Positions 4,889 to 64,000 of a DNA stretch of 64,000 nucleotides are shown here, piece by piece. A program made the position numbers and the translations under genes. The notes beneath the pieces are model-generated. The model had not been told where the DNA came from. It saw only the letters and a program-made list of their open reading frames with translations, and did not search any database. Position 1 is the stretch's first letter. Each line of letters begins with the position of its first letter. The DNA comes from Candidatus Omnitrophota bacterium (lineage in GTDB: Bacteria > Omnitrophota > Gorgyraeia > 2-01-FULL-45-10): the NCBI GenBank assembly GCA_028715345.1, contig JAQUSB010000003.1, positions 2,004 through 66,003 on the forward strand, read 5' to 3'.

Positions 4889-5296
4889 CTAAAATTTTAC
4901 GACCATGGCCCTGGGCGGGCATGCCCTTACGCACAGCTCGCAAGCGATGCATTTGTCGGAATCGAACAGCACCTTCATCGTCTTTTTGTCTATATAGAGC
5001 GCTTCTGTGGGGCATACGGATATGCAGGCGCCGCACTGCGTGCACCTCGATTCGTCCCTGGTCACATCCTTGCTCAAAGGCTGTATCTTCACGCCGAGGC
5101 CTGTAAGGTATTTTACGCCAGCGACGTAATTTTCCTTTTTGCCTTTCAGCTCCAACACCATGAGCCCTTCTTCCTTGGGCGTTATCTTGGCCTGTAGAAT
5201 GTTAAAAACGAGGTCAAAATCTTTGACAAGCTTATAAACTATCGGCTCATCGACCAATTTGTGCGGAAAAGTAAGTACTATTCTTTTGGATACCAT
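4889..5296 (-). CDS. NIL-domain / 4Fe-4S ferredoxin fusion protein
   Basis: 135 aa. N-terminal NIL-like domain, then CTQCGACISVCP and CIACELCVRACP. Confidence 0.55.
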   Translation of the reverse strand: MVSKRIVLTFPHKLVDEPIVYKLVKDFDLVFNILQAKITPKEEGLMVLELKGKKENYVAGVKYLTGLGVKIQPLSKDVTRDESRCTQCGACISVCPTEALYIDKKTMKVLFDSDKCIACELCVRACPPRAMVVKF

Positions 5297-5327
5297 GTCA
5301 AAACCTCCCTCATGTTAAAACCTCGGC

Positions 5328-29860: not shown

Positions 29861-29890
29861 GATATTTATGGAGGCTGTGTTTAATTTGGG

Positions 29891-29916
29891 GTAGGGCACC
29901 CTTAAGGGTGCCCTAC
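29891..29916. repeat. 26-nt perfect palindrome, copy 2: gtagggcaccc-ttaa-gggtgccctac
   Basis: Same core CACCCTTAAGGGTG, with a compensatory T/A to G/C change in the outer stem. Lies between the 29942 gene stop and the 27581 gene start. Confidence 0.6.
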
Positions 29917-37881: not shown

Positions 37882-38009
37882 AGATCAGCCTTTCATTTGG
37901 TTAGCATTTGATAGTTTTTAATAATATTAGCATATTATAATCTTTTGTCAAGCTCAAGTTGATAGCCGTATAAATCGGCGGATTTTTGTTTACCCGGATT
38001 GCGACAGCT

Positions 38010-39245: not shown

Positions 39246-39931
39246 GTCTTATATTTTAATATTACGGAATCTATGCCGGAGAGTATATCCTTTAAACGTT
39301 TGCCGTCTTCTGCAGGTATTGAACCCTTGTCGGCCAGCGCATTTATCCGCTCTTCCAGCGCCATAGAGTCGGTTTTGATCTTCTTGATGTCTTCATGCAG
39401 GCCCTCCACCATCTCTTCGAGAGCCGTCGCAGCGCTCCTCATCTCATCGCCGCGCCGTATCTTGAAATTGACTAAGAGGTCGCCGCGATGTATGGCCTCG
39501 GCGGATTTCTCTATCCTGTACATAGGCCCGGCTATCCTGTGTGATATGAATATGCCTGCGAAGAATATCAATACGGAGAGTATTATGACTTTCGGGATGA
39601 GCGATCTGTTCACGGAACGCAGAGCGTCTTTTAACGCGGCCTTATCCTGCGAGCTGAGCAGTTCGGCCTCGCGGAATATTTTTTCTAATCTGTAATCGCC
39701 CTTGCCGTATCTGACCTGTTCGTAATCGGTAATGCGGTTCACGTTCTCGAGGTTCTGCGAAACTTTAAAGTGGGAAAAGTTCTCGATGATCGAACCCCAC
39801 ATCCCCATGTAAAGCCCGAAACCCGTAACGAACATTACGACAAGAAGGGTGAGTACTGTCAGGACGGTGTATTTAAGCTGGAACCTTTTATTGACAAGGT
39901 AATTTTTTCTTTTATAGGTCGTTTCGGCCAT
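39242..39931 (-). CDS. Membrane protein with two transmembrane helices and a HAMP-like cytoplasmic helix, no output domain
   Basis: 229 aa. The second transmembrane helix is followed by HRIAGPMYRIEKSAEAIHRGDL, a HAMP-like amphipathic linker. Confidence 0.35.
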   Translation of the reverse strand: MAETTYKRKNYLVNKRFQLKYTVLTVLTLLVVMFVTGFGLYMGMWGSIIENFSHFKVSQNLENVNRITDYEQVRYGKGDYRLEKIFREAELLSSQDKAALKDALRSVNRSLIPKVIILSVLIFFAGIFISHRIAGPMYRIEKSAEAIHRGDLLVNFKIRRGDEMRSAATALEEMVEGLHEDIKKIKTDSMALEERINALADKGSIPAEDGKRLKDILSGIDSVILKYKT

Positions 39932-45656: not shown

Positions 45657-45889
45657 CACTATCTCCTTAATTTGCTTTATATACAAAGATATTTAACTTT
45701 TCATTTATTTACAGAATGTGTTTAATTCTATCATATATAAGGAAGGTCGTCAACCTTCAAAAACTAACTATTTTATATTTTAATTTTACCGGCCTCCGCT
45801 TCGTAAACCGCTTGGCAGGATTTACGATAGCAGAGGCCGATCACTACCGGGGTGGCACCGCGGCAGTGTTTAAATATTATCGCGGGTCG
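45657..45889 (-). promoter_or_regulatory. AT-rich intergenic region: probable promoter and 5' UTR of the 1883-aa gene and 3' end of the giant gene
   Basis: 233 bp with no ORF. AT-rich 45660-45780. Weak inverted repeat cggcctc...gaggccg at 45789-45838. Confidence 0.3.
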
Positions 45890-48800: not shown

Positions 48801-51800
48801 ACCATATCTACGATACCTGCGCTGTTCTCATTCATATTTTCGATGGTAATCGGCGAATCGGCCGCATATTCCAGCGTAAGAGACGCGAAACCGAACCTTA
48901 TCGCGAATGTGTTGTAAATACCGTGGACAAAGAAATTGATGACGAGGGCGGGAACCACGCTTATAACAAGCCCGGCATAAGGATCAAATCCCCATGCCGC
49001 CGATAAGGCGCGGACGCATATGCTCATCGTGATCATCATGCCTGCCCAGATACCGATGATGCCGAGGCCTCTCGGAAGCTCTTCGCGCCATGTATTATTA
49101 AGGTGCGCGCGCAGGAACGTTATAGGCAACAAGGTCTTTATCAATTCATGCCGCGCCGCGAACCAGCCGATCTTGTATTCTTCTGTTATCCCTAACTCAT
49201 ATGCGCGCGCTCGTGTCGAAGGGAGAATAAGGGCCGTGCTTCCGGTCTGCGTGACCGAGGCGATCTTCTTAAGCGCGAATATCCTGGCATTGCGTATATC
49301 TTGATACGGTATAACCGATACCTTTTCCACCTCGATACCATTGTCGCTTAAGAAACCGGTAAAACGTTTTAGAGATTCTTCGTTCTTACCAAATACCTCT
49401 TCCTGCATGAACGGCCGGATGACCAATCTGCCGCCGGTCTTTACGGAATCGCATATTAACTTCCAGTCTTCCCTGCCGGCCGGTGAATCGAAATCGGATG
49501 AAACGCCGCATATGGAAAAGATAAGTTCAGGCTTTCTCGCATCAGGTAAAGCCGCTATTTCGGGCAGGTATTCATTGTAATATCTGGTAATGGTCGGGAC
49601 CCGTAATCCGGTCCCTTTTTCCTGTTGAAAATCTATATTTACTACTGCATCGCTTTGAGTTGCCGTTTTCAATAATTCCCTGACGCAAGGATACCCGCTT
49701 CCGCCTATCTCGAATATCTTCGCTCTCTTAAGCCGCTCCCTATCCGCGGGTTTTGAAAACGCCTCTGTAATAACGGCAAGCATCCACGCCCCTCTGTGGC
49801 TTTCGCGGGCCAGAGCTTCGGGTGTCGTATCGAGACCGAGTAACTCTGCGGCATATCTGATGCTTGCTTCGGATAACGCGCCCGGAAATGTTTCAACAGG
49901 TTTCTGCATTATTACGCGCGGCTTCGGTCCCGGTTTGGGCAAAGGTTTAGGCTCCGGCGGCGGGGGAGCCAGTAAAACTTTCGGCTGATGAAACATCAAG
50001 TCCGGAGGAGGCAGAGGGAAACGCGCGATCCAGTCATCCTCCGGGAATATTTTGAGTATCGCTTCCGCCTCCTGCTTCATACGATTGATCTCCGGGTCTG
50101 TCCATCCTCTGCCCTGCCTGAGACCTCCGGCAAATTCTTTAAGTTTTCTCCCCGCTTCATCGGCTTTACCCAATACAAGCGGCCTGAAAAATGTAAGAGC
50201 GCGCTCCAAACGCTTTGCCCCGTATATTTCCGTCTTACCGAAAATGGCCCCTATCCTGTTTATCTTCATCGGCGCATTGTAGTCTTCGGACATGCCGTAA
50301 CGCAATGCAAGAACTCTGCGCAGATCATGAGATCCGGGTATATACTCAAGTGCGGCGCGTATAATATTGATCTTGCGCTTGATTATAGGATGGCGCGCTA
50401 TCACCGAGCCCAGCCATCGCGTCTTGGTGGTCGAGGAAGGTTCCGCCTTTTTGACTTTTCCGAAATATTCCTCTTTTATGAGCCGCGGGTACTGGGCAGA
50501 ACCGGGAAATTTATTTGATTTAAGCGAATCGGCCGCTATAACGTCGAATTCTTCTTCCGTTATCAATTCGTCTTCAAGCATAAATCTTACTCTGTCGGCG
50601 GCCGCAAGCGGCAGCTTGCTTCCGCGGCCTTCACCCATATACACCCTGTCTATCTTTTCGCCATGCCGCCATGCGCGCCATGCTACGCGAATATCGTTAT
50701 AAGGATCGAAAGGGTTGCCGACTATTATGGATAACATGATAAGATTAAATATTCCCAATATCGTCAGGCAGGCTTTTGAAGTATGTTGCGGGTCCATTCC
50801 GGTATTTTGCAGCATCAGCAAAATTATTATGCCTATAATAGATATGCCGAGAGATAATTTTGTCATAAATATGCCCGGCGCTAAAGCCACGCGCACAGGA
50901 TGCTCGAAATAGGCGCCATCGGCAGAATCATAAAATCCTCCCGTGACCCTTCCGTCCTCTTCTACTATACCGACGGAGCCGCGATCTTTATCAGCTGAGG
51001 CGTGAAGCATTTCATGGGATTCCGCCAGGAACCGCGCGCACCGTTTACCGATAAGCGGGATCCGGTTTAATATCTTTATCGAAATAGCAAGGCTGTTAAT
51101 ATAATCCGCTAAAGAAACTTTTGGGTTTTTCTGTTTTTCGCGCCATATTTTAAATCGTATTTTCGTATCTTCGAGGTCGTTTTTAGAGAACATAAAAACG
51201 GCGTTGACCATAAAGGCGCTGATCAAAAGTATCGATCCTTGATGATAAAATAACGCGCCCGACAGGATCGCTACGGCGACCGCACTCATTGCGATACCGG
51301 GCCAACCTTTTGATCCCGGAATATGCACGCCGTATCCGTCAAATACGGGATCATTCGGATGCTGGATAAAATGTCCCAGCTCGTGCCAGAATACGGAGAG
51401 AAAATAGACTGCGGCTGTCATAATGAGGGTAAAGCCTAAGCCGCCGTTATCGATACCGGCGAAGTGGGCAATGACCGGCGGTACAAATCCCAGTAGCGCC
51501 GTAATAAGCTGCGGCATCGATATGGCGGATCTCGGCGGTAATTTCGATGAGGCAATATAGTCTTCATAAGGGACAAGCCTGCCCAGCAATTTATTGATCT
51601 TTTCTTCGGGAAGCCGGGTATTTTCGCGATATTTCCCGGCCTCTTCCTTTACTTTTCTGACCAATCCGCCGAGGTCGATAGTGCGGTCGAGCCTGTCCAA
51701 AAGCATGATATCGGATATGTCCATAAAGCCGTCTTTCGCGCAATCATATAGGCTCTCGGATCTGCCGCGGACCAGAAGGGCCGATATATTTTTGATTAAG

Positions 51801-54800
51801 GAGTCATCGGTAAGCCCAAGCCGATTAAGCTCTTTTTTCATCCAATCGGCATACTCTGTTTCGTCAGGATTCGACCTGCCTCTCATTAAACCGGTACCCG
51901 GGCGTATTCTGATAAATTTCCCGGATGCGCCTAAGATTTCCGAGATACCATTGTCGGCAGAGCCGGCCTCCGCTACGGAGCCTTCCGTTACCTTAAGCGT
52001 TTTCCCATCGCCTTCTTTTAGAAGGACCACAGGCCTGCCCATCGAAAGATACTGTTGCATATCGAGCAAAATATTCTTCACTTCGGCTGCACTCAAGAGA
52101 TGCCTCGTGCGGCGATCGATGTAGCTGTCGGGTTTCGGCATACCGTAAATATTCGGGAATTCTATTTTGATAACCATAGCCAGAAGCTGGCCGTTAACTT
52201 TGTTCGCCTCGGGATTGCCGTTATTAAGCAACGTGAACAGCCTGCTCCACCCGTGAATATTTATAAACGATCTCGTAAAATCCCTTAAGCCCGCAAGGCT
52301 CCATACAAAACGCTGCATCTCTTCCAATATGTAATTTTCTTCTGCGGTCAATATGCAAAATACTTTATTGCCGCCATTGGCAGGCCATACGATGGCAAGG
52401 TGGCCGCCGGCTCCCTGCAAGCCGCGCGCTACAACTTTACTATCCCTAAGGATGCTGACCGTATCGGACGACGGGATGCCGTGCTCCTCTTTAATGTCCC
52501 TGCAGAAATTATTCAGGTCATAGAGCCTGCGTGGCTTCGTATTTCTCAATGTGATAAGCTTATTCAGGGTTATTTCCGCGTTTTTCCGGTCGACCGGGGT
52601 CTTTGCGGCCACGGCGGGCCGGGAGGCAAATCCTTTCGCGTATAGCGCATCTTTATATCTTGTTTTCAGAAGTCTTGTGTGAACGTATCTGGTAATGGCC
52701 ATCCCCTGGTCCCTGGCATCATCGATAGCAAGCCATTTCGGCACGTTCTCGAAGAAATCGCCGGACTCATGCATAGCCTCTTTCGCTCCTGTATACTGCC
52801 GTAATATGTCTATCTTCTCCTGGGTAGTTTTACCGACAGCGCCCGGAGTCGTTACAAGCTCCTGAGTGATAAGCCAGAGGAACAGTGTCTGCTCTCCTAT
52901 TATCACCGACTCCTCATAAACTTCATCGGACTCGCTTCCTATATTATTATCGTGGCGTAATTCGTGGAGGAGACGTTCTATGCGCACGAAATTGGCGCCG
53001 TCTATAGCGTCCGCGTCGAACGATTGCTCGTTCACGATATCGTCGAGCCTGAAGAAAAATTCGTTAAATACGATGGTTGCTTCGTTATTTTCGAAATCGT
53101 AATAACGCGCGGAGTCTATCATGAGATCGGGCGCTACGGCAAATTTCAGCTTAGCCAATTCCAGGTTGGAGGACAGATTTATCCCGGTTACATGCGTATC
53201 CGCCTGAATAGGCTTGCTCTGGACTGCCTCCTTCAATATCTTATGAAATTCCGGGCTAACAGACGCTATATAGCACATGGTCGAGAATAACATGTTGAGC
53301 TTGGCAGGCAATGGGCCATCCGAAGGAAAGATGACCGCAAGCGCTTTTTCTATTTCCGAGGGGCTTTTTTCGTCAAGGTTATCGATGATTTCCTTCAGGC
53401 TTTCTAATTGCGAATTATCCAGTTCCGCTATGGTTCGGCACTGTAATCGTTCTATCGGCGGCAAGGCCATCGCTTTACCATAAGCGCCTTTACCGGAAGG
53501 CCCATCGGCGCGTGGGACGCTAAGTTCCGGCGCTTCGACGGCCTTTAATGCCTCAGCCGCGCTCTTCCTGAGCTCAGGCGGCAGCTTTTCATTACCTGAT
53601 ATTTTCTTTAAATATGGGATGTTTTCTTCCGATCCCCCTATCCCCATCTGCTCGATGATACGCTCCAGGGCGGTTGTTGCATTATAACGTTCTCCGTTTC
53701 TTGTATAAGACGGTTTCCTGTTATAATCATTCATATCAGTCGCAATTTTTATAAAGATATCTATGAAAAGCCGCGCATCATCCATCATCGGCACCGTCCC
53801 CATAACTACATCAGCTTCCCGCACCTGTTCCGGACCGACTTTATTAAGCATTGCCATAAAGGCGCTTACCGCGTTCGGGCCGCCTATACCGGCGAGTTTA
53901 CGGATAGCGTCGACATATTTGCCGTAATCGTCACTTTTTAATTGTTCTATAAGGGCGTTTTCTTCCGCTTTCATATCGGCAAGGGCTTTTTCTGCGGCGG
54001 CTCGCATTGCCGGCGGGCAAGCGCTCTCCCCCGCTATAGCCTTAAGGTGCTTTTCGACTTTTCTGTTATTGATACCGCAAAGCGCTTCAACGGCCCGCGC
54101 TTGCGCCAATGCAGAGGCAATGTCCTCAATAATGGCCGGAGATTCTACATCGTATTCCCCGTATTTTCTTTTAGTGATAGACTCGGCTGTCTTCCCTAGC
54201 GCCTCGGCGGCGGCCGCACGCACTTCGGTATCATTGTCTTTTAATGCCTCTTTCAATATTTTCACGGCGTTTTTCAGGACATCATCCTGGTCCGGACGCA
54301 CTTGTATGGGAAGCCCGAAATCACCGCCATACACTTCACCGATAGCCCTGGCGGATTCGGCGCGGACTTCCGCATAATTATTTTTCATTTTTCCCGTAAG
54401 GGCGGAAATAGCTTTCTCATCTGCATTCTGTTTTAAGGCTTTTATCAGCTCCTTCTGAACGACCGGGTCTGCTTCTTTCTCCAGCGCCTCGATAAGCTCC
54501 TTCTCCGCAAGATGGCCGAATGCGGATAATCCCGCCGCGGCCTTAATACGTTTCGCGGGATCTTCATCATTAAGCATAGTTTTGAAAGCTTTCAGGTCAC
54601 GGTCATGTATCTGCCGTTGAATAGATATCCCTTTGATGGATTCGCCGAAATTGTCCTTGCCCGTAATTTTTTGAGCTATCCGCCCGTATCTATTAAGCTC
54701 CATCCTGCCTTTAACCGCGTCCAATTGTTCCTCTAGGGATCTTTCCGGCATCACATTATCTTTTTTATGCTTCGCGAAATCGATAAAGGCGCGGTAGCCG

Positions 54801-57800
54801 CCCAGCACGATCGCCGTTATGGTCACAAGCCCGATGAGAGCTTTGAGGGAGTAGCTGAAAAATCTTCTGCCTTCCCTGGGTTTACCGGCTTCTTTATCCA
54901 GATAGGCAAGGTTCGCGAACTGGTGGATGATAGTCGCGACGGCAAAGAGAGGCCCATAAAGGGTCGCTATTATAGACGGGGTGGTTAAAAGGTATGTTAT
55001 ATCGGTGTTTGAGAAATATAAAATATCCGCTGTGGGTATGGTTATGAAAGCGGCGTTCATCGCGGTAATTGCGGCTATACGATACCACGGCGGCGCGTTA
55101 GGCATATTTTTAGCCTTAACGTAATGCGCTATAAAGAAGAGAGACCACGTTATAACCACGGACCATAAATTGCGAAGGCCGGGCACAAATAAAAGTCCGA
55201 TATTGACCGCCCAGAAAAGGCTCTGCTCTATTGCCGCCTGATATATACGCGCTTTATCATCCCCCAGCCATTTGCGCAGGGCCGGGATCATCGCCGATCC
55301 TTCTTGCGGAGCAGAAGGAGACTCGGGGCCTTCCACGATAGCATTCAATATAACCCATATATCTTTGCGGACACTTTCCGACGGGTCCTCCCGTTTCATC
55401 TTTAACGCTGCGCAAACCTCAGGCCGTCTTATCGCTTTCAGAAGCTCCGGCTCTTTCGTTCCGACGAGATCCTTAAAGAGTGCAACGGCAAATTGGCCTG
55501 TTTCGTCCGGCCGGCCGATAAACGAAGCCAGCGCATCTATATCGGAAACTATCTCTTTTATTATATCCTTATTCTTACTGCGGGCGAATTCACCGATAAT
55601 ACCGAATGCGCTCTCGCGCCTCGCTATATCGAACGGCTCTTCTAATCCCGCAATATATATGCATAATTTCACCACCGGCCCGATATCTCCGCCGGATTCG
55701 GCAAATGCCTTATTCGCATTCACAAAACTGCGGCGGAATTTTTCCGACATTACGCAAGCCGGTATGGTCGAATCCGCCAGCATATCGAGCAATGCATCAT
55801 TACCTTTTTTTACGATTATGGCAACCGCGTCATATGACTTTATTATATCGCCGTCATCATCTTTAGATATCATATCTTCCAATATATCTATAAATGTTTT
55901 ATCAACCCCTTTTATCTTAATGCGCAACTCCGCAAGTATTTCCGACTGCTCACTTCCTCCTAGCAAAATAAGCCCTGAGATCATGCTTAAACTTCTGAGG
56001 CGGGATCTTTCGTCTTTATCGGCCAGACCGCGGAAAAATATACTTATCGCGGTCTCATAACGTCCTTCGACCTGCACGCGTGCTTTTGCTATGGCACCGC
56101 ACATGATCGGATCTTTGTTTTTCATTAGATAGTAAAGCATTCCCTGGCTTAAATCGCGAAGATGAGTATTAGGTGAGGCGGCGCATTCAAGTAAAAGCTC
56201 TATAGCAGGCGTAGCTTTAGCTATATAGTTATAAAAGTCCGCGAGCAGCCCCGCAGGCGCATTGTTAATTATCCCGTGAAGATCCATTAAAGCTTCTATT
56301 TTTTCATCGGCATCACCTTCTAGCAGTGCTCTTAACGCTACCCTCGCCTCATATTCTCTTCTACCCGGTATATCCCTATACCAATCCAGCGTGGCCCCTT
56401 CCATGCCTTTAACAGGTATCGGCCAGACAGATGCCATAGCCGCCATGCTTATCGCGTTGGCCGCACCGCCATTAAGTACCCCTAAATAAGCCAGCGCCTG
56501 CGCGGCCGATGCCGCGGCTATCATAGCGATCGAAAGAATAAGCGGATTACGCTTCAGCCAGTCGACTGCGCGCCGTACCGGTCCGGCGTCAGACGAGGTT
56601 TTAGACGGGGTGCGTTTCGTCGCCGCCTTTTCGCCGATGCCGTCATAGGACAAATTTAAAAGTACATCGCGGCCTTTATTTTTTTCGAACCAGCCTTCAG
56701 GATATACTTCATCATCTAGCAATATCCATACATTTTTAATGCCCGACCATTCGAAGCCGGCATTCGATACTATTTCATAGGTCCCATTGGCTTCCGGGAT
56801 CGTGATTATTTTCGTAAGCGGCATAGTCTGCGCGGCACGCTCGCATACGGCGGCAAAGAGCGCTTTGCCTATGCCCTTATGTTCAAAGTCTTTCCTGACC
56901 GCGACAAATTTTACTTTAGCGCCGATACCTGTTCTACCCAGATGGCAAAAACCTACTATCCGACCGCCTTTATCTCTATATACGGCAACTACGTTATGCT
57001 TGGCATTTATTTGTGCTACCGGTATCTCTATCTTATCGTATTCATCCTCATTAAGGATACCATCCTCGACTAACCTGTGGAATATTTTGTTTATAGCCTC
57101 TTCATCTCCTTTTCTATGGTTAGTCCCATCGAGAAATTCTATCTTATCGTAAATATCCGATTTCACATTAAATGTCGCGCCGAAGACTTTGACTTTCTTT
57201 GAGCCGCCATGTTTAGGTTCCCGTCCGGAAAGCGTCCCGTACCCCACATCTATGCCTCTCTCATTAAGATAGGGAACGAGGAATGTGTTTATAAGTGAGT
57301 GGGCGACGATGCTGAACAATATGGAGTCTATGGGGTTAGATACGAAGTATGCTATGGTTAGGCCTGTTACTGTTACGAGGGCCGGTATTATAAGATGATA
57401 TGATGCGGGCTTTCTCTCTTCGGAACCAGGAGGGGCCCTTTCATTAAGTATGTGCAGGAGTGTGAATACAGCGCCGAATACTACTAAAGATGCGAAGAGT
57501 ATGGATGAATTTACTACCGGAGTGAAATTAAAGTATGACTCTACTACAGCCGCTATGCCGTAAGGTATGCCTACCCTTAATAAGAGGTCTTCTACTATAG
57601 GAGCTGTTACCTGAGGTGTATATCCTATGCCTGTCTTAGGCTTTATGTATTTATCCCATAAGTCGCCTATGGGGCGTAAGGTGGCAGGGGCGACTGGAAG
57701 CTCAGGCAATAAATATTCCGCCATGCCTGCGCGCCATTCGTCATTCTTTTCCGACGACGGCACCACGGACCCTAAAGATTTTCCCGATTTTTTCTCTCCC

Positions 57801-60800
57801 GGGATATCGGTAAGGCGCACCATAGCGCCGAATTTAACATCCTTATGCTCCTGCAGGAATTTAGCAAGATACAGATGTTCTATTTCGACAAAGCTCGCAT
57901 CAGAAGCTTTCCATATTTTCGCGTCGCTCTGCTTTTCTTCTGTTATTGTCCTGACATTAACGCCTGCACCTACATGCACTCTCCGGCCTATCTTATCGAA
58001 TATTTTCCTCAGCCTTTCAACATCTACGCTATTCTGCGGCGCCGGAACAATGCTATTCTCCCTATCCAATATCCGGTCATATACGACCATATCGCCGATC
58101 TTCATAGAGCCGCCATTTTTCGGCCCTTTGAGCCCTCCGGCCAGCCCAACGAATAAAACATCTTTAATGGAAAGTATGTTAACCAGGTAATCTATTGCGC
58201 CTACTATCTGATCACCATACGCGTCATCCAAATCCATAATTAAGATCCTTTGGGCATCGGGTAAAATTACTACGCAATGATCGCAGCCTTCGCGCTCAAA
58301 ATCTTCGAAACTCGCGCCATTGCCGGCGCGTTTGACCAGAGCCTTAGCAAATTTCTTGGGGCTGAATACGAATATCGCCCGGGAAATTCCGCGCGCGTCA
58401 CGGCCGAGCGTCTCGTCGTACAATTTTCTGTAGTCTGTTTTAAATTCAAGGATAGACAGAGATGTGTACGGAATGTTCTTATATTTAAGCATGGCGATAT
58501 ATTCGGCCATCCGCGTTCCTCCATGCAGACCTGCAAGGACGTATAGAATTTCCCCCGTCTTTGTTATTGCGCGATAGAAATGCCCCCTTACCTCTCCATA
58601 CGATCCCGGCTTGGCATCCGTCAGGTTACGCTCATTTTTAGTGCCGTGGCTGGCCGCATAGACTTCTTTTACTTCGGTAAATTCACCCGAATGAAGACGT
58701 TCGGCTAACATAGTTTCTGACTGTTCATTCAGACCGATATGTATCTCTATGCCTGCGCCTTTCTTTAAATTTTCTATTAAACCTGCCGGCATATAATCGT
58801 CAACATACGGCTCTATTTCCATAAGGCTTTCTTCGGCATTTGCGGGAGTTTTCAGAGAATCGTAAAGAGCTTTAATCTGCGATTTACTAAAAACTGAAGA
58901 TACTACGGCAGGCTGAACTGTATAAGCCTTAGGCAAATGCATGGGAACGGCATTAGGGATAGAATTTTCTCCCCAGCTTATCTGCCCGCTATTGTCAATG
59001 ACCTTCCTGTCTCCTAAAAGCGTCAATATGGAAAATATCTGAAGCGAATGGCCGAACATCACAATCTTCTTACCTATATATCTTGGGTCGCTGTTCAATT
59101 TTTCCAAAAATGCTTTTGAGCGTATCAACAGATCTATGACACTCTCACCGCCGCCGGGCCTAACTGCCGCATCGAGATATTCATGATACCTTTCGCGCTC
59201 AGCCTGCTGCTCAGAAGTAAGCATATCGAGCGTTTTATTCTGTAATGCGCCGCCGTACTTCTCGTTTATAAGAGGATCCCGTATAACAGTAAGGTCTTTA
59301 CCGGTCCTATCTCTCACAAGACTTGTGAATGCCGCTGCTGTATCTTTTGTACGCGTAAGAGTGCTTGTTAATATGATCACGTTATCGTTTACTATATCGT
59401 CCTCTAATTGCTTGAACAAACTTTCGGCGCCTAGCGCGGCCTGCCTCTTGCCTTTTGGGGTAAGTTGGTTTATATCTTCATCGGCAGCGCCGCCGATTAT
59501 CCCTTCGATAAGATTTGCTTCAGTCTGGCCGTGCCTTACAGCGATTATGTCTATATTATTTTCAACGACGGCGCCTTCACCGGCAAATCCGATCCTCCCG
59601 GTAGAGCTGTCTAAAAATATCTTGTTGTCTAACTCAGCGATGGCCCCGTCTTCTTTAGCCTTTTCCTGCCCCGGGCCGTCGAGCTTAAACCTCTCGTCCA
59701 TCATGTCGCCGAGGCCTTCGGGATCCGCGACGAATCTCATCTTTCCTTCGAGTGACGGCGGGAACTGCTGGACCGTATTATTTCTGACAAATACAGCTGT
59801 CGCGCCTTCGTTGGCAAGTTCCAACATATCAAAATCGTTTCCGCTGTCGCCCAAAACGGTTATATTCTTTGTCTCGATGCCAAACCTTGCGGCATGAACC
59901 TTTACCCTCTCTCCTTTGCCTGAAAGAACGATATCTATGTACTGGTTATTATTGTTTGTGAGACGGAATCCCATGGGAGATAATTTTTCATTTAGTCTGG
60001 AAAATAGCACAGGCGTATGTTCAGCAAGGACATTGCCCATATTTATGGTTATGACCGACAGCTTGTGATCGACCTCTATCTTCGACGGCCACTGTATATC
60101 TTTTCCTATATATTTTGAGAGGCCCAACTCTCCCATTACTGCGTCGATCTTTTCAACTGCAGCCGCCCTCTGATGTTCGTCAAGCCTTAGCGAATTATTT
60201 TCTTCGGCATGCAGGTTGCCGTCTGCATCCACCCACCCCACATCGCCGCCAAGTTCACCCAATAGATAGAATTGTCCCGGATATTTTATATGCTTCAGGA
60301 ATTCATATTTTCGCAATTTCTCATGTATCTTCGGAAGTCTCTGGCCTGTCACTATCGCCCATCGCCCTCCCCTATCGAGCGTCTCCGCTATCCGGCGCTG
60401 CAAAGATGCGGGGATAGGCTGGCCGCTTAAATGCAGAGTCCCGTCAAAGTCACTTGCAAACAAATGTTCTGATAGATCGCCAAACGGTTTCAAGTTAGCT
60501 ATCGCCTTTTCGCCGACGCCGTCTTTCCGTAGATCCCGGATTGTCGGGTGGCCCTTATACTCATTAAACCAATCTTCCGAATATATTGCGTCATCAAGCA
60601 ATACCCATACATTCCCGATACCGGACCATCTGAGCCCGGAATGCTCTGCTATATCGGCAATCTCCCTGGCTGACGCCGAAGTTATGATCTTCGTTATGGG
60701 CATCGTCCGCACAGCGCGTTCGCAGGCGGCGGCAAACAGAGCCTTGCCTATACCTTTGTGTTCAAGGTCTTCCCTTACGGACACGTATTCTGCTTCGGCC

Positions 60801-63800
60801 CCGATGCCGTACTTCTTTATATAGCAGAATCCGGCTATCTCGCCTTTATCGTCTCTGTATACGGCAATTATGTCCCTTTGCACATCCGGATTTTTGACAG
60901 GTATATGCGTATCGTCATATTTGCTCTCCGTGATATAGCCCTTTTCCACAAGACGGTGTAATAATCCGCCGTTTATAGCCGCGCCGTCTTGTAAGCTATA
61001 TTTGCTTCCGTCGAGAAATTCTACTTTGTCATAAATATCTCCGTTCACCTCGAACGTTGCGCCGAAGACCTTCACTTCTTTTTTCGGCGTTCCTTCTTTT
61101 GGAAATTCGCCTAACGTCCCATATCCTACCTTTACCCTAAAGTACCCCAATAAGGGCACAAGTGCGGTATTTGCAAATGAATGTGCGGCGACATTGGCTG
61201 CTATGGCAAGTAATGGATTTGATATGTAGTAAGCTATGACCAAGCCTGATATGGCTACAAGAGTAGGTATGAATAGATGGTAAAATGATCCGGAAGCAGG
61301 AACTTCCGCTATCTTATTTCTCAAAATCCGTACAGCGCGCGGCGGGCTTAAGCTTTTGTTATTCAAAACATACGTCCCGGAGACAAAAAGGCTTGCGCCA
61401 TTGGCATAAGCTCCGGCTATATTCGTATCGTTTATCCCGCCCTGCACCATTATCTCCTTGCCGGGCGCCTTCCGGCCGATCTCGATGATCTTGGCAAACT
61501 GGCTTACATCGGCTTCGGCCCCGGTAGCGCCTGTCTCTATAGACGAGACTACGATCATATCCGCCTCTTTAAGGATCGCGGTCGGTATAGAATCGACCGG
61601 TTCGTCCTTCTCCAGGACTATGCCGGCCTTAATATTCAGCGATTTTATATACCTGATAGCATCCAAAAGACGCGCCTTGTCCTTGAAACTGTCAAATTGT
61701 ATGTCAATGCTCCTCACGCACCCCGTATCGGCAAACCCTTTAAGGTATTCCTTTGTCGGCTCCCAACACAGAAGATGAACATCGAAAGTCTTTTCGAAAC
61801 CTGCGTCCTTCATCGCGTTGATCAATCCGGGAGTGAATTGCCCCGTATTATCCGGATATGCCTTATTACTATTTTCGCGGCCTGTGTTGCTGAAATATCC
61901 GTTATCCCGCACGTCGTAATGAATACCGTCAGCGCCCGCAGCCTGTATCTCCAGGGCTTTCCCGATCAATTCTTCGTCTTCCATTTTGCGCAATACAGAG
62001 AGAGGAACGAAGATATGCGGATTCTTTCTATTCAATAGATGCGCTATTGTAAATATCACCCCGAATACGCCCAGAAGTGAGAACGATATGCTTGAATTTA
62101 TAAGCGGTGAGAACTCGAAGAATGACTGTATTATGGCGGCGATACCATAAGGTATGCCTACCCTTAATAGAAGGTCTTCTACTATAGGAGCTGTTACCTC
62201 GGGGGTATATCCTATGCCTGTATACGGCTTTACCTTCGCATCCCACCAGTCGCCTATGGGACGGATGGTGGCGGGGCCTGCAGGGGCAGGCGCTACAGCT
62301 TGCTGTAACACGGCCTTGCTTTTCAGATCTTGAGCAAAATACGCAAGGCCTGCTAAAAACCCATATTTCAAAGTATTTACATCGTTGTCTACAACTCTGA
62401 CTAACGGCACCTCTTGTTCTGCGATCCCGAGCGCGGTATTTGCCGACATAGCCGTTATCTTTCCCGCTTCTCCCGAAAGAACTCCTCCTGACAATACGAC
62501 ATTTTCGATATTATAATAATTTTCGATTGCCCGTTTCAGGGCGGCAATACATTTCCCGACATTTACAAAAACCACTTCCGCATCATTACGCTGTTCTGCA
62601 TTGCCCGATCCAAGCCAGCCTGTCAAAATGCGCGGCACATCGTCGGTTTCGGCAAATTTGTATTTATTATAAAGCCCTAGCCAACGGGCATTATTCGAAA
62701 TGCCGTACCATGATATATACGCTCCTGCCCAACCGTTAACTCCTGTCATGCTATGAACGGGCGCGCCGCCACTCATATCTATCACGGCTTTGGAAAATTC
62801 ATTGATACCATCCGCGTAATTACCGTTTTCGTCTATAAATCCGGAGGAAAGAGTGTTCCCGAATTTAAGTACGAGCGTATTTTTGTACCCAAACCTTCTC
62901 CCTATGCCATGGGCTTCCATGTTTCCGTCGTTTTGGGTAAAAACCGGCTTGCCCGGGTAAGCCGCCGATATAAGTCGAGGCAGAGAAGCGACGTCTTTAT
63001 CTGATATCGGAATAAATTTTTCTTCCTGACCGGCCGGTTTTCCTAATACGTTATCTCCCCTTGCAATAATACCCAGACCTACGCTTACTCCTATATAGTC
63101 GAGCACTTCATCCGGAATGCCGTTCGTACGCATGCTTACTCTGGCGGCTTCTATGGCCCTTTGTGCCAGATATGCCATATCGTTCGGGTCGACACCTTCC
63201 GGACACGTCCTAATACTTACCGGGGCGGTCAAATACCGGTAGGTTCCTTTCCCGTCTACTTCCGCAACGCCTATTTTCGTAACCATTTTCCCGAAGTTAA
63301 CACCCAATATCCTGACATCGGCTTTTTTGCCGGCGGGTAACGCTGTCCGTATAGCGCCGAGGACAGCGGGGGCCTTTACAATTTCTTTTTCCGTTTTATC
63401 GGAAATAGTAAATCCCGCCGTACCAAAACTTTTCCCGGCCATTTCGCTCGTACGCAGAGGCTTCGCGTCTTTGTCAAAGTGTGAGTTAAAAGATTCTCTC
63501 AAAGTATTTGTAAAACCGGGAATGGTCGAAGCTATTTCAAGGCCTGTCGTTCCCCGTGTTTGTATACGATTGTATATCTCGGTGCAGGCGTATCGCATGA
63601 TATTTTCGAACGCGCCATCTTCCAGGTTTTTGGGAATACTCAAAGCAAAATCCATGGAAGCACCGGGCGTGCCTGTGAACTCAAAAGAAACTGTTTCGAA
63701 GCTCCCCGGATATTTGACTGCATCCTGCCTGAAGCGCTCAAAGACCTCCTGCCATTCATACAAAAATCTCTTATCGGTTAAAGACGACAGGGAAGCGTTA

Positions 63801-64000
63801 TGCACCTTCGATACAACCCCTTTACGGTCGAGAGACCACTCGCAAACTTTACCGTGTTTATTCAGAAGCTCCACAAGCTGTTCGCGGCGGCCTTTTTTAA
63901 CAACAAAAATACTGTATCCGCCGCCGCCTGTTCCTATCGAACTGGCGCCTTCGATGATCTCCCCGGCCTCAGCAATAACGTCATCCAAATAACTGCTGTC
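45890..64000 (-). CDS. Giant multi-domain membrane-associated megaprotein, partial (5' end beyond window); more than 6032 aa in window
   Basis: A single uninterrupted minus-strand frame of about 18.1 kb. Recognisable enzyme-domain motifs are interspersed with hydrophobic helices. See the domain features below. Confidence 0.6.
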   Translation of the reverse strand, partial: DSSYLDDVIAEAGEIIEGASSIGTGGGGYSIFVVKKGRREQLVELLNKHGKVCEWSLDRKGVVSKVHNASLSSLTDKRFLYEWQEVFERFRQDAVKYPGSFETVSFEFTGTPGASMDFALSIPKNLEDGAFENIMRYACTEIYNRIQTRGTTGLEIASTIPGFTNTLRESFNSHFDKDAKPLRTSEMAGKSFGTAGFTISDKTEKEIVKAPAVLGAIRTALPAGKKADVRILGVNFGKMVTKIGVAEVDGKGTYRYLTAPVSIRTCPEGVDPNDMAYLAQRAIEAARVSMRTNGIPDEVLDYIGVSVGLGIIARGDNVLGKPAGQEEKFIPISDKDVASLPRLISAAYPGKPVFTQNDGNMEAHGIGRRFGYKNTLVLKFGNTLSSGFIDENGNYADGINEFSKAVIDMSGGAPVHSMTGVNGWAGAYISWYGISNNARWLGLYNKYKFAETDDVPRILTGWLGSGNAEQRNDAEVVFVNVGKCIAALKRAIENYYNIENVVLSGGVLSGEAGKITAMSANTALGIAEQEVPLVRVVDNDVNTLKYGFLAGLAYFAQDLKSKAVLQQAVAPAPAGPATIRPIGDWWDAKVKPYTGIGYTPEVTAPIVEDLLLRVGIPYGIAAIIQSFFEFSPLINSSISFSLLGVFGVIFTIAHLLNRKNPHIFVPLSVLRKMEDEELIGKALEIQAAGADGIHYDVRDNGYFSNTGRENSNKAYPDNTGQFTPGLINAMKDAGFEKTFDVHLLCWEPTKEYLKGFADTGCVRSIDIQFDSFKDKARLLDAIRYIKSLNIKAGIVLEKDEPVDSIPTAILKEADMIVVSSIETGATGAEADVSQFAKIIEIGRKAPGKEIMVQGGINDTNIAGAYANGASLFVSGTYVLNNKSLSPPRAVRILRNKIAEVPASGSFYHLFIPTLVAISGLVIAYYISNPLLAIAANVAAHSFANTALVPLLGYFRVKVGYGTLGEFPKEGTPKKEVKVFGATFEVNGDIYDKVEFLDGSKYSLQDGAAINGGLLHRLVEKGYITESKYDDTHIPVKNPDVQRDIIAVYRDDKGEIAGFCYIKKYGIGAEAEYVSVREDLEHKGIGKALFAAACERAVRTMPITKIITSASAREIADIAEHSGLRWSGIGNVWVLLDDAIYSEDWFNEYKGHPTIRDLRKDGVGEKAIANLKPFGDLSEHLFASDFDGTLHLSGQPIPASLQRRIAETLDRGGRWAIVTGQRLPKIHEKLRKYEFLKHIKYPGQFYLLGELGGDVGWVDADGNLHAEENNSLRLDEHQRAAAVEKIDAVMGELGLSKYIGKDIQWPSKIEVDHKLSVITINMGNVLAEHTPVLFSRLNEKLSPMGFRLTNNNNQYIDIVLSGKGERVKVHAARFGIETKNITVLGDSGNDFDMLELANEGATAVFVRNNTVQQFPPSLEGKMRFVADPEGLGDMMDERFKLDGPGQEKAKEDGAIAELDNKIFLDSSTGRIGFAGEGAVVENNIDIIAVRHGQTEANLIEGIIGGAADEDINQLTPKGKRQAALGAESLFKQLEDDIVNDNVIILTSTLTRTKDTAAAFTSLVRDRTGKDLTVIRDPLINEKYGGALQNKTLDMLTSEQQAERERYHEYLDAAVRPGGGESVIDLLIRSKAFLEKLNSDPRYIGKKIVMFGHSLQIFSILTLLGDRKVIDNSGQISWGENSIPNAVPMHLPKAYTVQPAVVSSVFSKSQIKALYDSLKTPANAEESLMEIEPYVDDYMPAGLIENLKKGAGIEIHIGLNEQSETMLAERLHSGEFTEVKEVYAASHGTKNERNLTDAKPGSYGEVRGHFYRAITKTGEILYVLAGLHGGTRMAEYIAMLKYKNIPYTSLSILEFKTDYRKLYDETLGRDARGISRAIFVFSPKKFAKALVKRAGNGASFEDFEREGCDHCVVILPDAQRILIMDLDDAYGDQIVGAIDYLVNILSIKDVLFVGLAGGLKGPKNGGSMKIGDMVVYDRILDRENSIVPAPQNSVDVERLRKIFDKIGRRVHVGAGVNVRTITEEKQSDAKIWKASDASFVEIEHLYLAKFLQEHKDVKFGAMVRLTDIPGEKKSGKSLGSVVPSSEKNDEWRAGMAEYLLPELPVAPATLRPIGDLWDKYIKPKTGIGYTPQVTAPIVEDLLLRVGIPYGIAAVVESYFNFTPVVNSSILFASLVVFGAVFTLLHILNERAPPGSEERKPASYHLIIPALVTVTGLTIAYFVSNPIDSILFSIVAHSLINTFLVPYLNERGIDVGYGTLSGREPKHGGSKKVKVFGATFNVKSDIYDKIEFLDGTNHRKGDEEAINKIFHRLVEDGILNEDEYDKIEIPVAQINAKHNVVAVYRDKGGRIVGFCHLGRTGIGAKVKFVAVRKDFEHKGIGKALFAAVCERAAQTMPLTKIITIPEANGTYEIVSNAGFEWSGIKNVWILLDDEVYPEGWFEKNKGRDVLLNLSYDGIGEKAATKRTPSKTSSDAGPVRRAVDWLKRNPLILSIAMIAAASAAQALAYLGVLNGGAANAISMAAMASVWPIPVKGMEGATLDWYRDIPGRREYEARVALRALLEGDADEKIEALMDLHGIINNAPAGLLADFYNYIAKATPAIELLLECAASPNTHLRDLSQGMLYYLMKNKDPIMCGAIAKARVQVEGRYETAISIFFRGLADKDERSRLRSLSMISGLILLGGSEQSEILAELRIKIKGVDKTFIDILEDMISKDDDGDIIKSYDAVAIIVKKGNDALLDMLADSTIPACVMSEKFRRSFVNANKAFAESGGDIGPVVKLCIYIAGLEEPFDIARRESAFGIIGEFARSKNKDIIKEIVSDIDALASFIGRPDETGQFAVALFKDLVGTKEPELLKAIRRPEVCAALKMKREDPSESVRKDIWVILNAIVEGPESPSAPQEGSAMIPALRKWLGDDKARIYQAAIEQSLFWAVNIGLLFVPGLRNLWSVVITWSLFFIAHYVKAKNMPNAPPWYRIAAITAMNAAFITIPTADILYFSNTDITYLLTTPSIIATLYGPLFAVATIIHQFANLAYLDKEAGKPREGRRFFSYSLKALIGLVTITAIVLGGYRAFIDFAKHKKDNVMPERSLEEQLDAVKGRMELNRYGRIAQKITGKDNFGESIKGISIQRQIHDRDLKAFKTMLNDEDPAKRIKAAAGLSAFGHLAEKELIEALEKEADPVVQKELIKALKQNADEKAISALTGKMKNNYAEVRAESARAIGEVYGGDFGLPIQVRPDQDDVLKNAVKILKEALKDNDTEVRAAAAEALGKTAESITKRKYGEYDVESPAIIEDIASALAQARAVEALCGINNRKVEKHLKAIAGESACPPAMRAAAEKALADMKAEENALIEQLKSDDYGKYVDAIRKLAGIGGPNAVSAFMAMLNKVGPEQVREADVVMGTVPMMDDARLFIDIFIKIATDMNDYNRKPSYTRNGERYNATTALERIIEQMGIGGSEENIPYLKKISGNEKLPPELRKSAAEALKAVEAPELSVPRADGPSGKGAYGKAMALPPIERLQCRTIAELDNSQLESLKEIIDNLDEKSPSEIEKALAVIFPSDGPLPAKLNMLFSTMCYIASVSPEFHKILKEAVQSKPIQADTHVTGINLSSNLELAKLKFAVAPDLMIDSARYYDFENNEATIVFNEFFFRLDDIVNEQSFDADAIDGANFVRIERLLHELRHDNNIGSESDEVYEESVIIGEQTLFLWLITQELVTTPGAVGKTTQEKIDILRQYTGAKEAMHESGDFFENVPKWLAIDDARDQGMAITRYVHTRLLKTRYKDALYAKGFASRPAVAAKTPVDRKNAEITLNKLITLRNTKPRRLYDLNNFCRDIKEEHGIPSSDTVSILRDSKVVARGLQGAGGHLAIVWPANGGNKVFCILTAEENYILEEMQRFVWSLAGLRDFTRSFINIHGWSRLFTLLNNGNPEANKVNGQLLAMVIKIEFPNIYGMPKPDSYIDRRTRHLLSAAEVKNILLDMQQYLSMGRPVVLLKEGDGKTLKVTEGSVAEAGSADNGISEILGASGKFIRIRPGTGLMRGRSNPDETEYADWMKKELNRLGLTDDSLIKNISALLVRGRSESLYDCAKDGFMDISDIMLLDRLDRTIDLGGLVRKVKEEAGKYRENTRLPEEKINKLLGRLVPYEDYIASSKLPPRSAISMPQLITALLGFVPPVIAHFAGIDNGGLGFTLIMTAAVYFLSVFWHELGHFIQHPNDPVFDGYGVHIPGSKGWPGIAMSAVAVAILSGALFYHQGSILLISAFMVNAVFMFSKNDLEDTKIRFKIWREKQKNPKVSLADYINSLAISIKILNRIPLIGKRCARFLAESHEMLHASADKDRGSVGIVEEDGRVTGGFYDSADGAYFEHPVRVALAPGIFMTKLSLGISIIGIIILLMLQNTGMDPQHTSKACLTILGIFNLIMLSIIVGNPFDPYNDIRVAWRAWRHGEKIDRVYMGEGRGSKLPLAAADRVRFMLEDELITEEEFDVIAADSLKSNKFPGSAQYPRLIKEEYFGKVKKAEPSSTTKTRWLGSVIARHPIIKRKINIIRAALEYIPGSHDLRRVLALRYGMSEDYNAPMKINRIGAIFGKTEIYGAKRLERALTFFRPLVLGKADEAGRKLKEFAGGLRQGRGWTDPEINRMKQEAEAILKIFPEDDWIARFPLPPPDLMFHQPKVLLAPPPPEPKPLPKPGPKPRVIMQKPVETFPGALSEASIRYAAELLGLDTTPEALARESHRGAWMLAVITEAFSKPADRERLKRAKIFEIGGSGYPCVRELLKTATQSDAVVNIDFQQEKGTGLRVPTITRYYNEYLPEIAALPDARKPELIFSICGVSSDFDSPAGREDWKLICDSVKTGGRLVIRPFMQEEVFGKNEESLKRFTGFLSDNGIEVEKVSVIPYQDIRNARIFALKKIASVTQTGSTALILPSTRARAYELGITEEYKIGWFAARHELIKTLLPITFLRAHLNNTWREELPRGLGIIGIWAGMMITMSICVRALSAAWGFDPYAGLVISVVPALVINFFVHGIYNTFAIRFGFASLTLEYAADSPITIENMNENSAGIVDMVFKEAVDEMGANKIDHSTRAKIYLQSGKRGLIIRDGHKPVGFILYNEYKKHKIVMDSFCLRYNYCSGYACTKVMRTVKERFASEGHTYAQVEINGRSRAIKDLLLNNGFTRYSPTDGPRMVMTLDLVQVRRKMELEADLVKIRSGSEYEPAASPAKPEKDFEVSNLNQEYYPEIEDIENRAEPVDGNYRMDKQAYADATRNVRIRLGGVALYDGKVVGAIVYDLNKGYIGIVRIIVDPDYKGCGVEEALIKKWLLERMAGRSRIEMTVNELDVDAWKALEAIGFKKEGVARNKFVVTGKTKGLRRELDGYRMVYRVEKKIAPGLHQNERGEVKASFLILAGIAAGIVLYNWPAIKMFLANLPYGPALAMAGLCISAVATVWLGGKGDERKPAITTTETGPLKTLTNLPPPKKGHGKYRIVVTCNANIYRSPLLQFAIQDYIDRNGWHDYFEVVSAGSSELITLNKKPAPALGRNIYYYDPGLNGLRRDIVAELNTDQFLSDKLVEFYANLKTVRLLDEQEIRDADVIIRAETDRSSVDPRDLQFTRFLPEENEFFGQKVPDLGEGEAVNKHRYLYELYSQTLDAGEVQGALGRAIEHIAKVMRLTDKPEGFVVGIPEVSSYRAAGRVKIIKDVLGENCSVETAKTADEFISRKRTGRQVCLFVDDAMTDADLASALAEILITNYKGALVAEDIDSEGRGHIRRIVNALIGDIEDMEPAEIFGMALDRITQTPSMRERVEGLRPMVADHILKLNESSLYNNRSIVKDAVSAGKRAGVVITEKVALNNPTFADGVAQIIAAGGEVSFLYGKDIATKERAEAFLAGAGCSAENIKKIRLVENNADGRAKNIEEIESEISAGLPQGLSMSNISIVSASGELSGAATYMKTLEVKEVTVAGKRVLAAVNSEKVAYRVALMDKVPENSMALDSEIPGLYYDSTAKKYTYLPPVVPKNIGEEVEIYRSAMILLSSAA
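47150..47560 (-). other. Domain of giant protein: low-molecular-weight protein tyrosine phosphatase / ArsC-like
   Basis: P-loop VVTCNANIYRS (CX5R-S; DNA 47521-47565). Confidence 0.55.
49250..49750 (-). other. Domain of giant protein: class I SAM-dependent methyltransferase-like
   Basis: Motif I IFEIGGSGYP (DNA 49691-49720). Preceded by the proline-rich linker PPPPEPKPLPKPGPKP (about 49910-49970). Confidence 0.45.
50990..51395 (-). other. Domain of giant protein: membrane-embedded HExxH motifs (site-2-protease/M50-like)
   Basis: VFWHELGHFIQHP (DNA 51343-51395) inside a hydrophobic helix. Second HExxH, AESHEMLHA, about 100 aa downstream (DNA 51006-51035). Confidence 0.4.
53300..54700 (-). other. 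Domain of giant protein: HEAT/ARM-like alpha-helical repeat region (PBS-lyase HEAT-like)
   Basis: Repeats of the type DPAKRIKAAAGLSAFGH, DNDTEVRAAAAEALGK (DNA 54193-54240), AEVRAESARAIGEV. Confidence 0.5.
56850..57100 (-). other. Domain of giant protein: GNAT acetyltransferase copy 2 (copy 1 at about 60700-61000; further GNAT-like domains at about 48560-48700 and 48050-48250)
   Basis: Shared motif FEHKGIGKALFAA (GNAT motif A) in both duplicated modules. Further GNAT-like segments contain YKGCGVEEALI. Confidence 0.55.
58950..59550 (-). other. Domain of giant protein: histidine phosphatase (phosphoglycerate mutase-like) fold
   Basis: RHG motif IIAVRHGQTEANL (DNA 59511-59550). Downstream GHSLQI supplies a second catalytic His. 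Confidence 0.5.
59750..60470 (-). other. Domain of giant protein: HAD-superfamily phosphatase (Cof/sucrose-phosphatase-like)
   Basis: Motif I SDFDGTL (DNA 60426-60460). Motif III/IV GDSGNDFDMLE (DNA 59821-59860). Confidence 0.6.
61400..61950 (-). other. Domain of giant protein: ribulose-phosphate 3-epimerase / hexulose-phosphate-type TIM barrel-like
   Basis: FDVHLLCWEP (DNA 61741-61775), then MVQGGINDTN...LFVSGT, resembling the RPE family DxHLM and VDGG motifs. Confidence 0.45.
62300..63988 (-). other. Domain of giant protein: GHMP-kinase C-terminal-like and ROK/glucokinase-like sugar kinase region
   Basis: GTGGGGYSIFVV (DNA about 63920-63950). ROK-like NDGNMEAHG (DNA 62897-62930) and LSGGVLSGEAG. 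Confidence 0.45.

Follow-up and report, generated by a model that had tools for sequence, protein, structure and literature searches.

The stretch of DNA analysed here, called the window throughout, comprises 64,000 nucleotides (nt) from a metagenome-assembled genome (MAG) of Candidatus (Ca.) Omnitrophota (contig JAQUSB010000003.1, positions 2,004 to 66,003), and it is dominated at one end by a giant open reading frame (ORF) in which a module made of a membrane domain and a GNAT domain occurs twice. The product of this ORF is a multi-enzyme, multi-pass membrane protein, where many hydrophobic helices alternate with predicted cytoplasmic enzyme domains, and Pfam finds RPE, HAD, His_Phos_1, PNP_UDP_1, three to four GNAT and HEAT_2 domains along it. 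The gene is 5'-truncated at 64000, and residue numbers are thus relative to the window, with amino acid (aa) 1 at the first TTG in it. The ORF and the features of the two module copies, including the transmembrane helices (TM1 to TM4), are as follows.

45890..64000, minus strand: giant ORF, 6032 aa from the first TTG (63988), at least 6036 aa open to the window edge
61985..62284, minus strand: copy 1, block 1 (aa 569-668), with the lead RPIGDWWD, TM1 and TM2
62162-62182, minus strand: copy 1 motif 1, VEDLLLR, in TM1
62039-62053, minus strand: copy 1 motif 2, FTIAH, in TM2
61367..61954, minus strand: ribulose-phosphate 3-epimerase (RPE) domain (aa 679-874; PF00834, 63.6 bits)
60485..61300, minus strand: copy 1, block 2 (aa 897-1168), with TM3, TM4, VGYGTL, a beta-rich linker and GNAT
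61169-61183, minus strand: copy 1 motif 3, HSFAN, in TM4
60728-60763, minus strand: copy 1 GNAT motif EHKGIGKALFAA
57698..60484, minus strand: non-duplicated spacer of 929 aa
59804-60460, minus strand: HAD/Cof-type hydrolase in the spacer (aa 1177-1395)
59015-59548, minus strand: histidine phosphatase in the spacer (aa 1481-1658)
57791-58174, minus strand: PNP_UDP_1 phosphorylase in the spacer (aa ~1939-2066; 27.1 bits against a cut-off of 25.1)
56606..57697, minus strand: copy 2 (aa 2098-2461), with the lead RPIGDLWD
57224-57646, minus strand: copy 2 four-TM domain, probably CPBP-like
57575-57595, minus strand: copy 2 motif 1
57452-57466, minus strand: copy 2 motif 2, FTLLH
57287-57301, minus strand: copy 2 motif 3, HSLIN
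56606-57223, minus strand: copy 2 GNAT part, with EHKGIGKALFAA at 56849-56884

The repeat was delimited by self-BLASTP of 300-aa segments against the masked remainder of the giant protein, a segmented comparison used because whole-protein BLAST hides off-diagonal matches. Two collinear blocks were obtained, namely aa 569-679 against aa 2098-2204 (61% identity, E 5e-40) and aa 897-1168 against aa 2194-2461 (53%, E 1e-90), and self-BLASTN gave two matches at the DNA level, 62048-62276 against 57461-57689 (76.4% over 229 nt, E 1e-43) and 60567-61081 against 56688-57200 (66.7%, E 4e-31). An earlier note on this DNA had claimed an internal duplication visible off the diagonal of a self-comparison, and these matches bear it out; the motifs it quoted for the module occur exactly twice. 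As for the kind of duplication, the note had spoken of a 1500-aa tandem one, and here it has to be corrected: the repeat is a dispersed, non-tandem intragenic duplication, far beyond chance, of a unit of about 365 aa, where the figure of about 1500 aa is the spacing and the copies do not stand head-to-tail. Copy 1 (aa 569-1168) consists of two parts, aa 569-668 and aa 897-1168, while copy 2 (aa 2098-2461) is contiguous, and the offset between the copies is 1529 aa in block 1 and 1297 aa in block 2 because the RPE domain is inserted in copy 1. The 929 aa between the copies (aa 1169-2097) show no self-similarity and have no counterpart after copy 2. The four enzyme domains previously named in this region, RPE, HAD, histidine phosphatase and PNP, are all present above the Pfam cut-offs (RPE also matches the NCBIfam model rpe with 76-80 bits, under its equivalog cut-off), but RPE does not lie with the others in the interval 57700-60470 between the two GNATs, since it sits inside copy 1.

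Hidden Markov models (HMMs) of two kinds, one based on the two copies and one on the wider family described below, detected no third copy of the module in any frame of the window. FxxxH and HxxxN-like strings around aa 2950 and 5000 raised the question of further diverged copies of the membrane domain, and these candidates were rejected as the two-copy and family HMMs gave independent E-values of only 0.46 and 5.2. The count of two is a minimum, for the upstream part of the gene beyond 64000 could hold more.

Considering that the source is a MAG contig and that repeats are hard to assemble, one may ask whether a collapsed or chimeric metagenome assembly made the repeat or its most similar part. 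We hold this to be extremely improbable. Between the copies, 24-40% of the nucleotides and about 45% of the residues are different, and their domain contexts differ as well, whereas artefactual duplicates would be near-identical; both are in frame within an 18-kb ORF that carries Pfam domains throughout; and the identical run of 28 nt between them is shorter than typical assembly k-mers and reads.

The module opens with a Pro/Ala-rich junction and the lead peptide RPIGDxWD…KPxTGIGYTP, which are followed by the four hydrophobic helices and a conserved VGYGTL; a short linker rich in beta structure then leads to GNAT. In the membrane domain, helix 1 starts with VEDLLLR, helix 2 ends with FTxxH and helix 4 contains HSxxN, and both copies keep VEDLLLR, FT(I/L)(A/L)H and HS(F/L)(A/I)N, that is, the order and spacing of the CPBP/Rce1-like motifs EDxxxR, FxxxH and HxxxN. 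When the membrane domain of copy 2 was scanned alone, it matched PF02517 (Rce1-like) with 27.8 bits and E 3e-6 against a gathering cut-off of 22.4, and within a 3000-aa segment the same match fell to just 19.1 bits. NCBIfam gave a weak match to MrtJ spanning the whole 98-position model. The CPBP family includes minimal forms such as MrtJ, and SpdC/LyrA is an inactive scaffold. In an alignment of 17 instances of the domain, nothing is invariant apart from the E, both H and a pair of prolines, and the N is at least 90% conserved; motif 1 is ED-LLL-R in this gene, and in the relatives it is EE-xx-K, with K as the basic residue and a spacing one residue less. AlphaFold2 with the family alignment folds the membrane domain as a helical bundle (predicted local distance difference test 82.8, predicted template modelling score 0.71). 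Fold searches did not discriminate, a Foldseek search giving no match, and a profile search against PDB sequences found nothing either. PF02517 is matched individually by only 2 of the 17 instances and is borderline for the family as a whole, which weighs against the assignment. Judging from its sequence, the membrane domain is nevertheless probably CPBP-like, of the glutamic-type intramembrane protease kind.

The lysine and arginine counts along the lead, the successive loops and the tail are 4/0/3/0/6, which fits a topology with both termini inside and the TM2-TM3 loop cytoplasmic, so that all enzyme domains, the inserted RPE included, would be cytoplasmic. The GNAT part is matched by PF13508 (52.7 bits) and PF00583 (47.2 bits), two stretches each and above the cut-offs, and the acetyl-CoA-type motif is identical in both copies; the top Foldseek matches of this part are all GNATs, at E ~1e-3 and on a low-confidence part of the model. 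Both copies are probably functional, because the catalytic-type residues and the acetyl-CoA motif have been kept under purifying selection. No relevant paper on CPBP-GNAT fusions turned up in a literature search.

Relatives of the membrane domain are few. In an exhaustive HMMER search of 1.84 billion representatives, no more than 18 proteins reached E<=1e-3, and most of these are 1.3-7.4 thousand amino acids (kAA) long. Eight of the matches were looked up, and five are labelled as Ca. Omnitrophota MAG (P0001, P0003, P0004, P0014 and its cluster member P0019), the others having no source label. Neither copy 2 nor the family alignment had a match in word-index protein searches, a kind of search that evidently does not reach this family. 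No close orthologue of the module was found in the protein collections searched, in contig scans of GTDB genomes and JGI metagenomes, or with a degenerate DNA pattern for EDLLLRVGIPYG. Outside the window, the domain is present twice also in P0001, P0002, P0003, P0004 and P0006. In P0001-P0004 the copies within each protein are mutually closest, with 55-79% identity against at most 49% between proteins (full-length copies in the alignment), and the copies of P0006 show 31% identity to each other by self-BLASTP.

The most similar DNA of the two module copies lies at their 5' ends. Identity reaches 88% in the best 90-nt window (aa 590-619), and the interval 62150-62240 is 85% identical (79/93) to its true partner 57563-57653, so the similarity behind the DNA core formerly described as about 90% identical is real and the figure slightly generous, 85-88% being found. 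A 28-nt exact run (62172-62199, equal to 57585-57612) occurs only at these two sites and in 0 of 100 shuffles. Most of this identity is a by-product of the near-absolute amino-acid conservation of motif 1: from the amino acids and the codon usage of the gene an identity of 75% is expected in the core, and the observed 88% exceeds it with p 2e-4, so that a real silent-site excess remains. In fact, among residues identical between the copies, the same codon is used at 38 of 59 in block 1, where codon usage predicts 20.7 (p<5e-6), and at 60 of 141 in block 2, where it predicts 52.8 (not significant), the two fractions differing with a Fisher p of 0.005. By the Nei-Gojobori method (NG86), the synonymous divergence dS is 0.73 in block 1 and 0.53 in the core (aa 590-618), where the nonsynonymous divergence dN is 0.02; in block 2 the proportion of synonymous differences pS is 0.68 and dS is ~1.8, which means saturation over roughly three quarters of the module. 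A change-point is placed after aa 613 (2-lnL, or log-likelihood, support interval aa 605-647; permutation p 0.008), with a same-codon fraction of 27/35 before it and 72/169 after it, and the silent-site excess does not reach beyond the first ~135-240 nt of the module. The two copies of the tract are located as follows.

62150..62284, minus strand: tract of elevated silent-site identity, copy 1 (aa 569-613; support to aa 647, 62048)
57563..57697, minus strand: tract of elevated silent-site identity, copy 2 (aa 2098-2142; maximum extent to 57461)

The duplication itself is old, because silent sites are saturated over most of the module. The reverse reading, that a very recent duplication or a conversion still going on in this gene explains the DNA core, was proposed in the earlier note, and it draws on the contrast of an 88% window and a 28-nt exact run inside copies otherwise only ~60% identical; moreover the corresponding tracts of P0001 and P0002, described below, are 98-100% identical, and a recent process is therefore possible elsewhere. 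For the window gene we judge it very unlikely. Even in the tract, where dS is ≈0.5-0.7, there are about 9 silent differences in 29 codons; the amino-acid identity of the copies is just 53-61%; RPE has been inserted in one copy, and 929 aa of other domains stand between the two. What is left of that proposal is the process, as gene conversion is the best explanation of the extra DNA similarity, and what falls is the very recent duplication; the word ongoing is not borne out for this gene, since the tract has gained these silent differences afterwards.

Another explanation does without conversion altogether, taking one old duplication whose 5' identity was kept by purifying selection together with selection on synonymous sites, for example by mRNA structure or pausing before membrane insertion, or arose by chance. 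Its strong points are that amino-acid conservation alone already accounts for the larger part of the core identity, that conservation in the family is highest at catalytic motif 1, which the tract covers, and that the sample is small. Several observations make it rather unlikely in our opinion. The silent-site excess survives conditioning on identical residues and on codon usage; it reaches module flanks whose amino-acid identity is ~45% and whose same-codon fraction is still 0.56-0.78, and TM3-TM4 of the same domain show no such excess. Rare codons and translational pausing were considered and rejected, as the codon adaptiveness of the tract is ordinary (17-20th percentile) and there is no rare-codon cluster. 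A codon constraint intrinsic to the domain was likewise rejected: between lineages, pairs of the domain share the codon in 406 of 1092 cases, or 0.37, which is at the background of 0.345 expected, against 167 of 250, or 0.67, within proteins.

The homologous proteins weigh further on this side. When the DNA of P0001-P0004 was compared, each pair of copies was found to have a short peak of DNA identity inside copies otherwise 50-70% identical, as listed here.

P0001: peak 90-nt identity 98%, exact run 55 nt, from the end of TM1 to TM2
P0002: peak 90-nt identity 100%, exact run 115 nt, in the TM2-TM3 loop and TM3
P0003: peak 90-nt identity 88%, exact run 26 nt, in TM2
P0004: peak 90-nt identity 93%, exact run 32 nt, in the lead and motif 1

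The peaks lie at differing positions of the domain, and this argues against a site-specific constraint. The tract of P0004 has the same location as that of the window, the lead plus motif 1, and it is the most telling one: the 5' 93 nt of its copy 2 are 93.5% identical to copy 1 with all six differences synonymous, and at informative sites the 5' end of copy 2 groups with copy 1 while the remainder groups with P0014, with which copy 2 shares a homologous insertion of ~180 aa in the TM2-TM3 loop. Phylogenetic incongruence of this sort is the mark that conversion typically leaves. We take it from these comparisons that intragenic copies in this domain family undergo gene conversion over short tracts. 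The insertion itself (aa 5553-5734 of P0004, L004; aa 2984-3166 of P0014) is a ~180-aa soluble domain with 42% mutual identity, for which no significant Pfam match was found, only a weak YjgF-like one at E 0.019. Two other homologues carry further internal repeats. P0001 (L003) has a much younger duplication of 233 aa (aa 1855-2087 against 3222-3454) with 83% amino-acid identity and a dS of 0.23, and P0002 (L002, aa ~270-1270) is largely an array of ~100-aa repeats with 38-50% identity.

Short-tract gene conversion between paralogous repeats is known for bacterial tuf genes, rRNA operons and surface-protein repeats. The window gene resembles such concerted evolution in having a short high-identity tract, silent sites included, within diverged paralogues and centred on their most conserved segment, and the incongruence of P0004 with an orthologue-like copy is of the same type. 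It differs in that its tract is old (dS ~0.5) and has not been kept near identity, that the partners lie within one ORF, 4.6 kb apart, and that the evidence is statistical. Taking all this together, the history which we regard as probable is an old intragenic, non-tandem duplication followed much later by a short gene conversion at the 5' end of the module. First, the two-domain module with its lead peptide would have been duplicated within the gene; then RPE would have entered the TM2-TM3 loop of copy 1; and long after the duplication a conversion of ~135-240 nt would have re-homogenised the lead plus motif 1, after which the converted tract would have drifted to its present dS of ~0.5. The 88% core would then be the sum of the 75% imposed by the amino acids of motif 1 and a residual shared ancestry left by the conversion, so that the window tract would be an older and partly decayed example of the process.

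Several points weigh against this reading. For the window gene there is one sequence pair, with 35 informative sites in the tract against 169 outside it, and the case rests on statistics of p ~0.008 to <1e-5 and not on a tree, as the searched collections hold no orthologue of this gene to show incongruence. The DNA of P0001-P0004 comes from short-read MAG or metagenome assemblies. The RPE insertion was considered as the boundary of the tract and rejected, for it follows the change-point (aa 605-647) only after a further 20-60 codons, and this mismatch leaves no clean mechanistic boundary. Besides, a genome-specific selection for identical mRNA or codon features may have played a part.

The TM2-TM3 loop deserves attention as a site of growth. 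RPE is found in copy 1 of the window only, whereas the loop is short in copy 2 and in most homologues, and the inserts vary from one protein to another: RPE in window copy 1, the ~180-aa domain in P0004 copy 2 and P0014, and a hydrophobic one of ~70 aa in P0010. As most instances of the domain have a loop of 10-45 aa, the short loop is probably ancestral. Because the number of helices is even and both ends as well as the TM2-TM3 loop would be cytoplasmic, the four-helix domain would seem to be a topology-neutral unit, which can be duplicated and can host inserts in its loop without flipping the domains downstream. The earlier suggestion that this gene shows how such genes grow is in this respect supported by four other Omnitrophota giant proteins, with module duplication, loop insertion and short-tract conversion as the means.

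Giant proteins with many TM helices have been described from Omnitrophota, and it has been asked whether they are cleaved (West-Roberts et al., bioRxiv 10.1101/2023.11.21.568195). Among long proteins with Pfam matches, 65% repeat a Pfam domain, the repeat copies carry accumulated synonymous and nonsynonymous substitutions and do not reflect recent expansion, and GNAT and HAD are among the commonest domains (bioRxiv 10.64898/2026.06.07.730766). The window gene is like these very long proteins ('Archaeovorin'-type, multi-enzyme and anchored in the inner membrane) in its origin and in its alternation of TM helices and enzymes including GNAT, HAD and HEAT_2, and it fits both the domain repetition and the age of the copies. 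It differs in having a defined membrane-domain-plus-GNAT repeat with mosaic divergence; no SecA-like domain was seen in the window, and while the giant classes reach at least 10-30 kAA, the visible part of this gene is ~6 kAA (at least 6036 aa) and runs off the window. Compared with CPBP/Rce1-like proteases (Abi, PF02517), the membrane domain likewise has a four-helix core, with motifs of the EExxxR, FxxxH and HxxxN/D types in canonical order on helices 1, 2 and 4, but it is very divergent, lies inside a polyprotein-like giant, is fused to GNAT and occurs in two copies, one of them split. Neither CAAX/CPBP domains nor gene conversion are mentioned in the two papers (bioRxiv 10.1101/2023.11.21.568195 and 10.64898/2026.06.07.730766).

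Accordingly the duplication as such is an instance of a known pattern and a fairly ordinary way for such genes to evolve, and it adds little, because internal repeats in Omnitrophota giants have already been described as the rule and as mostly old. What is added concerns the membrane domain. Some of the 'anonymous' TM helices of giants appear to form a discrete and very divergent CPBP/Rce1-like domain with its catalytic-type residues intact; this domain occurs almost exclusively within very long proteins, with every source-labelled one from Ca. Omnitrophota; at least five giant proteins have duplicated it independently of one another, and it tolerates whole enzyme domains in its predicted cytoplasmic loop; and its intragenic copies exchange short DNA tracts, as probably happened in the window gene too. 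Together these give a concrete picture of how giant genes are assembled and remodelled, and a candidate for self-processing. One may go further and speculate that the CPBP-like domains are active, cis-acting intramembrane proteases which cut the giants into working pieces, that the giant ORF is thus a bacterial polyprotein, that GNAT modifies the resulting product, perhaps capping a new terminus, and that recurrent conversion keeps the catalytic or lead segment of the copies fitted to one shared substrate or cleavage site. This is a long shot, and we put it forward as a quite unlikely idea; if true, it would address the question of West-Roberts et al. whether and how giant proteins are processed.

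Elsewhere in the giant ORF, HEAT_2 lies at aa ~3136-3270, further GNATs at aa ~5238-5346 and a weak match like a low-molecular-weight phosphatase near aa 5480, and in scans of isolated segments aa 1-568 (62285-63988) and aa 3480-5060 (48809-53551) were largely without Pfam match. A HELGH (HExxH) string at aa 4202-4206 (51371-51385) stands among hydrophobic helices at aa 4155-4270, and its place in a helix cluster recalls membrane-embedded zinc metalloproteases such as site-2 proteases, to which it is a candidate only; a Pfam scan of aa 4150-4700 found no family. The giant ORF was not found in word-index or exhaustive representative protein searches, the best match of the latter being a distant relative of 114 bits. 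The HypD of the genome is present in NCBI nr with a 100% match. The giant gene product thus seems to be missing from public protein collections, perhaps as it was left uncalled or flagged as a pseudogene.

The window is bacterial. Its minus strand carries nuoH and HypD/HypF, a histidine kinase, a solute-binding protein, two proteins with GH94 domains and three glucanase-like ones of PF10091. Directly downstream of the giant gene lies an ORF of 1883 aa (40035-45686, minus strand) without Pfam matches at E<=0.001, and the same holds for an ORF of 453 aa at 36520-37881. A dense glucan-related gene cluster occupies 17407-39245 on the minus strand and contains, besides the solute-binding protein, a HAMP protein and the histidine kinase, the following genes.

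19578-25709, minus strand: GH94 protein of 2043 aa
32790-35162, minus strand: GH94 protein of 790 aa
17407-19506, 27581-29899 and 38010-39245, minus strand: three PF10091 'putative glucoamylase' proteins

This cluster looks like a locus for synthesis or utilisation of beta-1,2-glucan or cellodextrin beside the giant gene. Across the 64 kb, ORFs of at least 200 aa are all on the minus strand, barring a few plus-strand ones which overlap longer minus-strand ORFs and are probably spurious. Scans of the whole window for tRNA genes and Rfam families found none. The GC skew is negative in 30 of 32 windows of 2 kb, and its cumulative sum falls almost monotonically. Finally, an independently assembled Logan contig of 3979 bp (L005, run SRR22315506) carries genes identical to those at 36520-39931 of the window, which places the same organism in that run.

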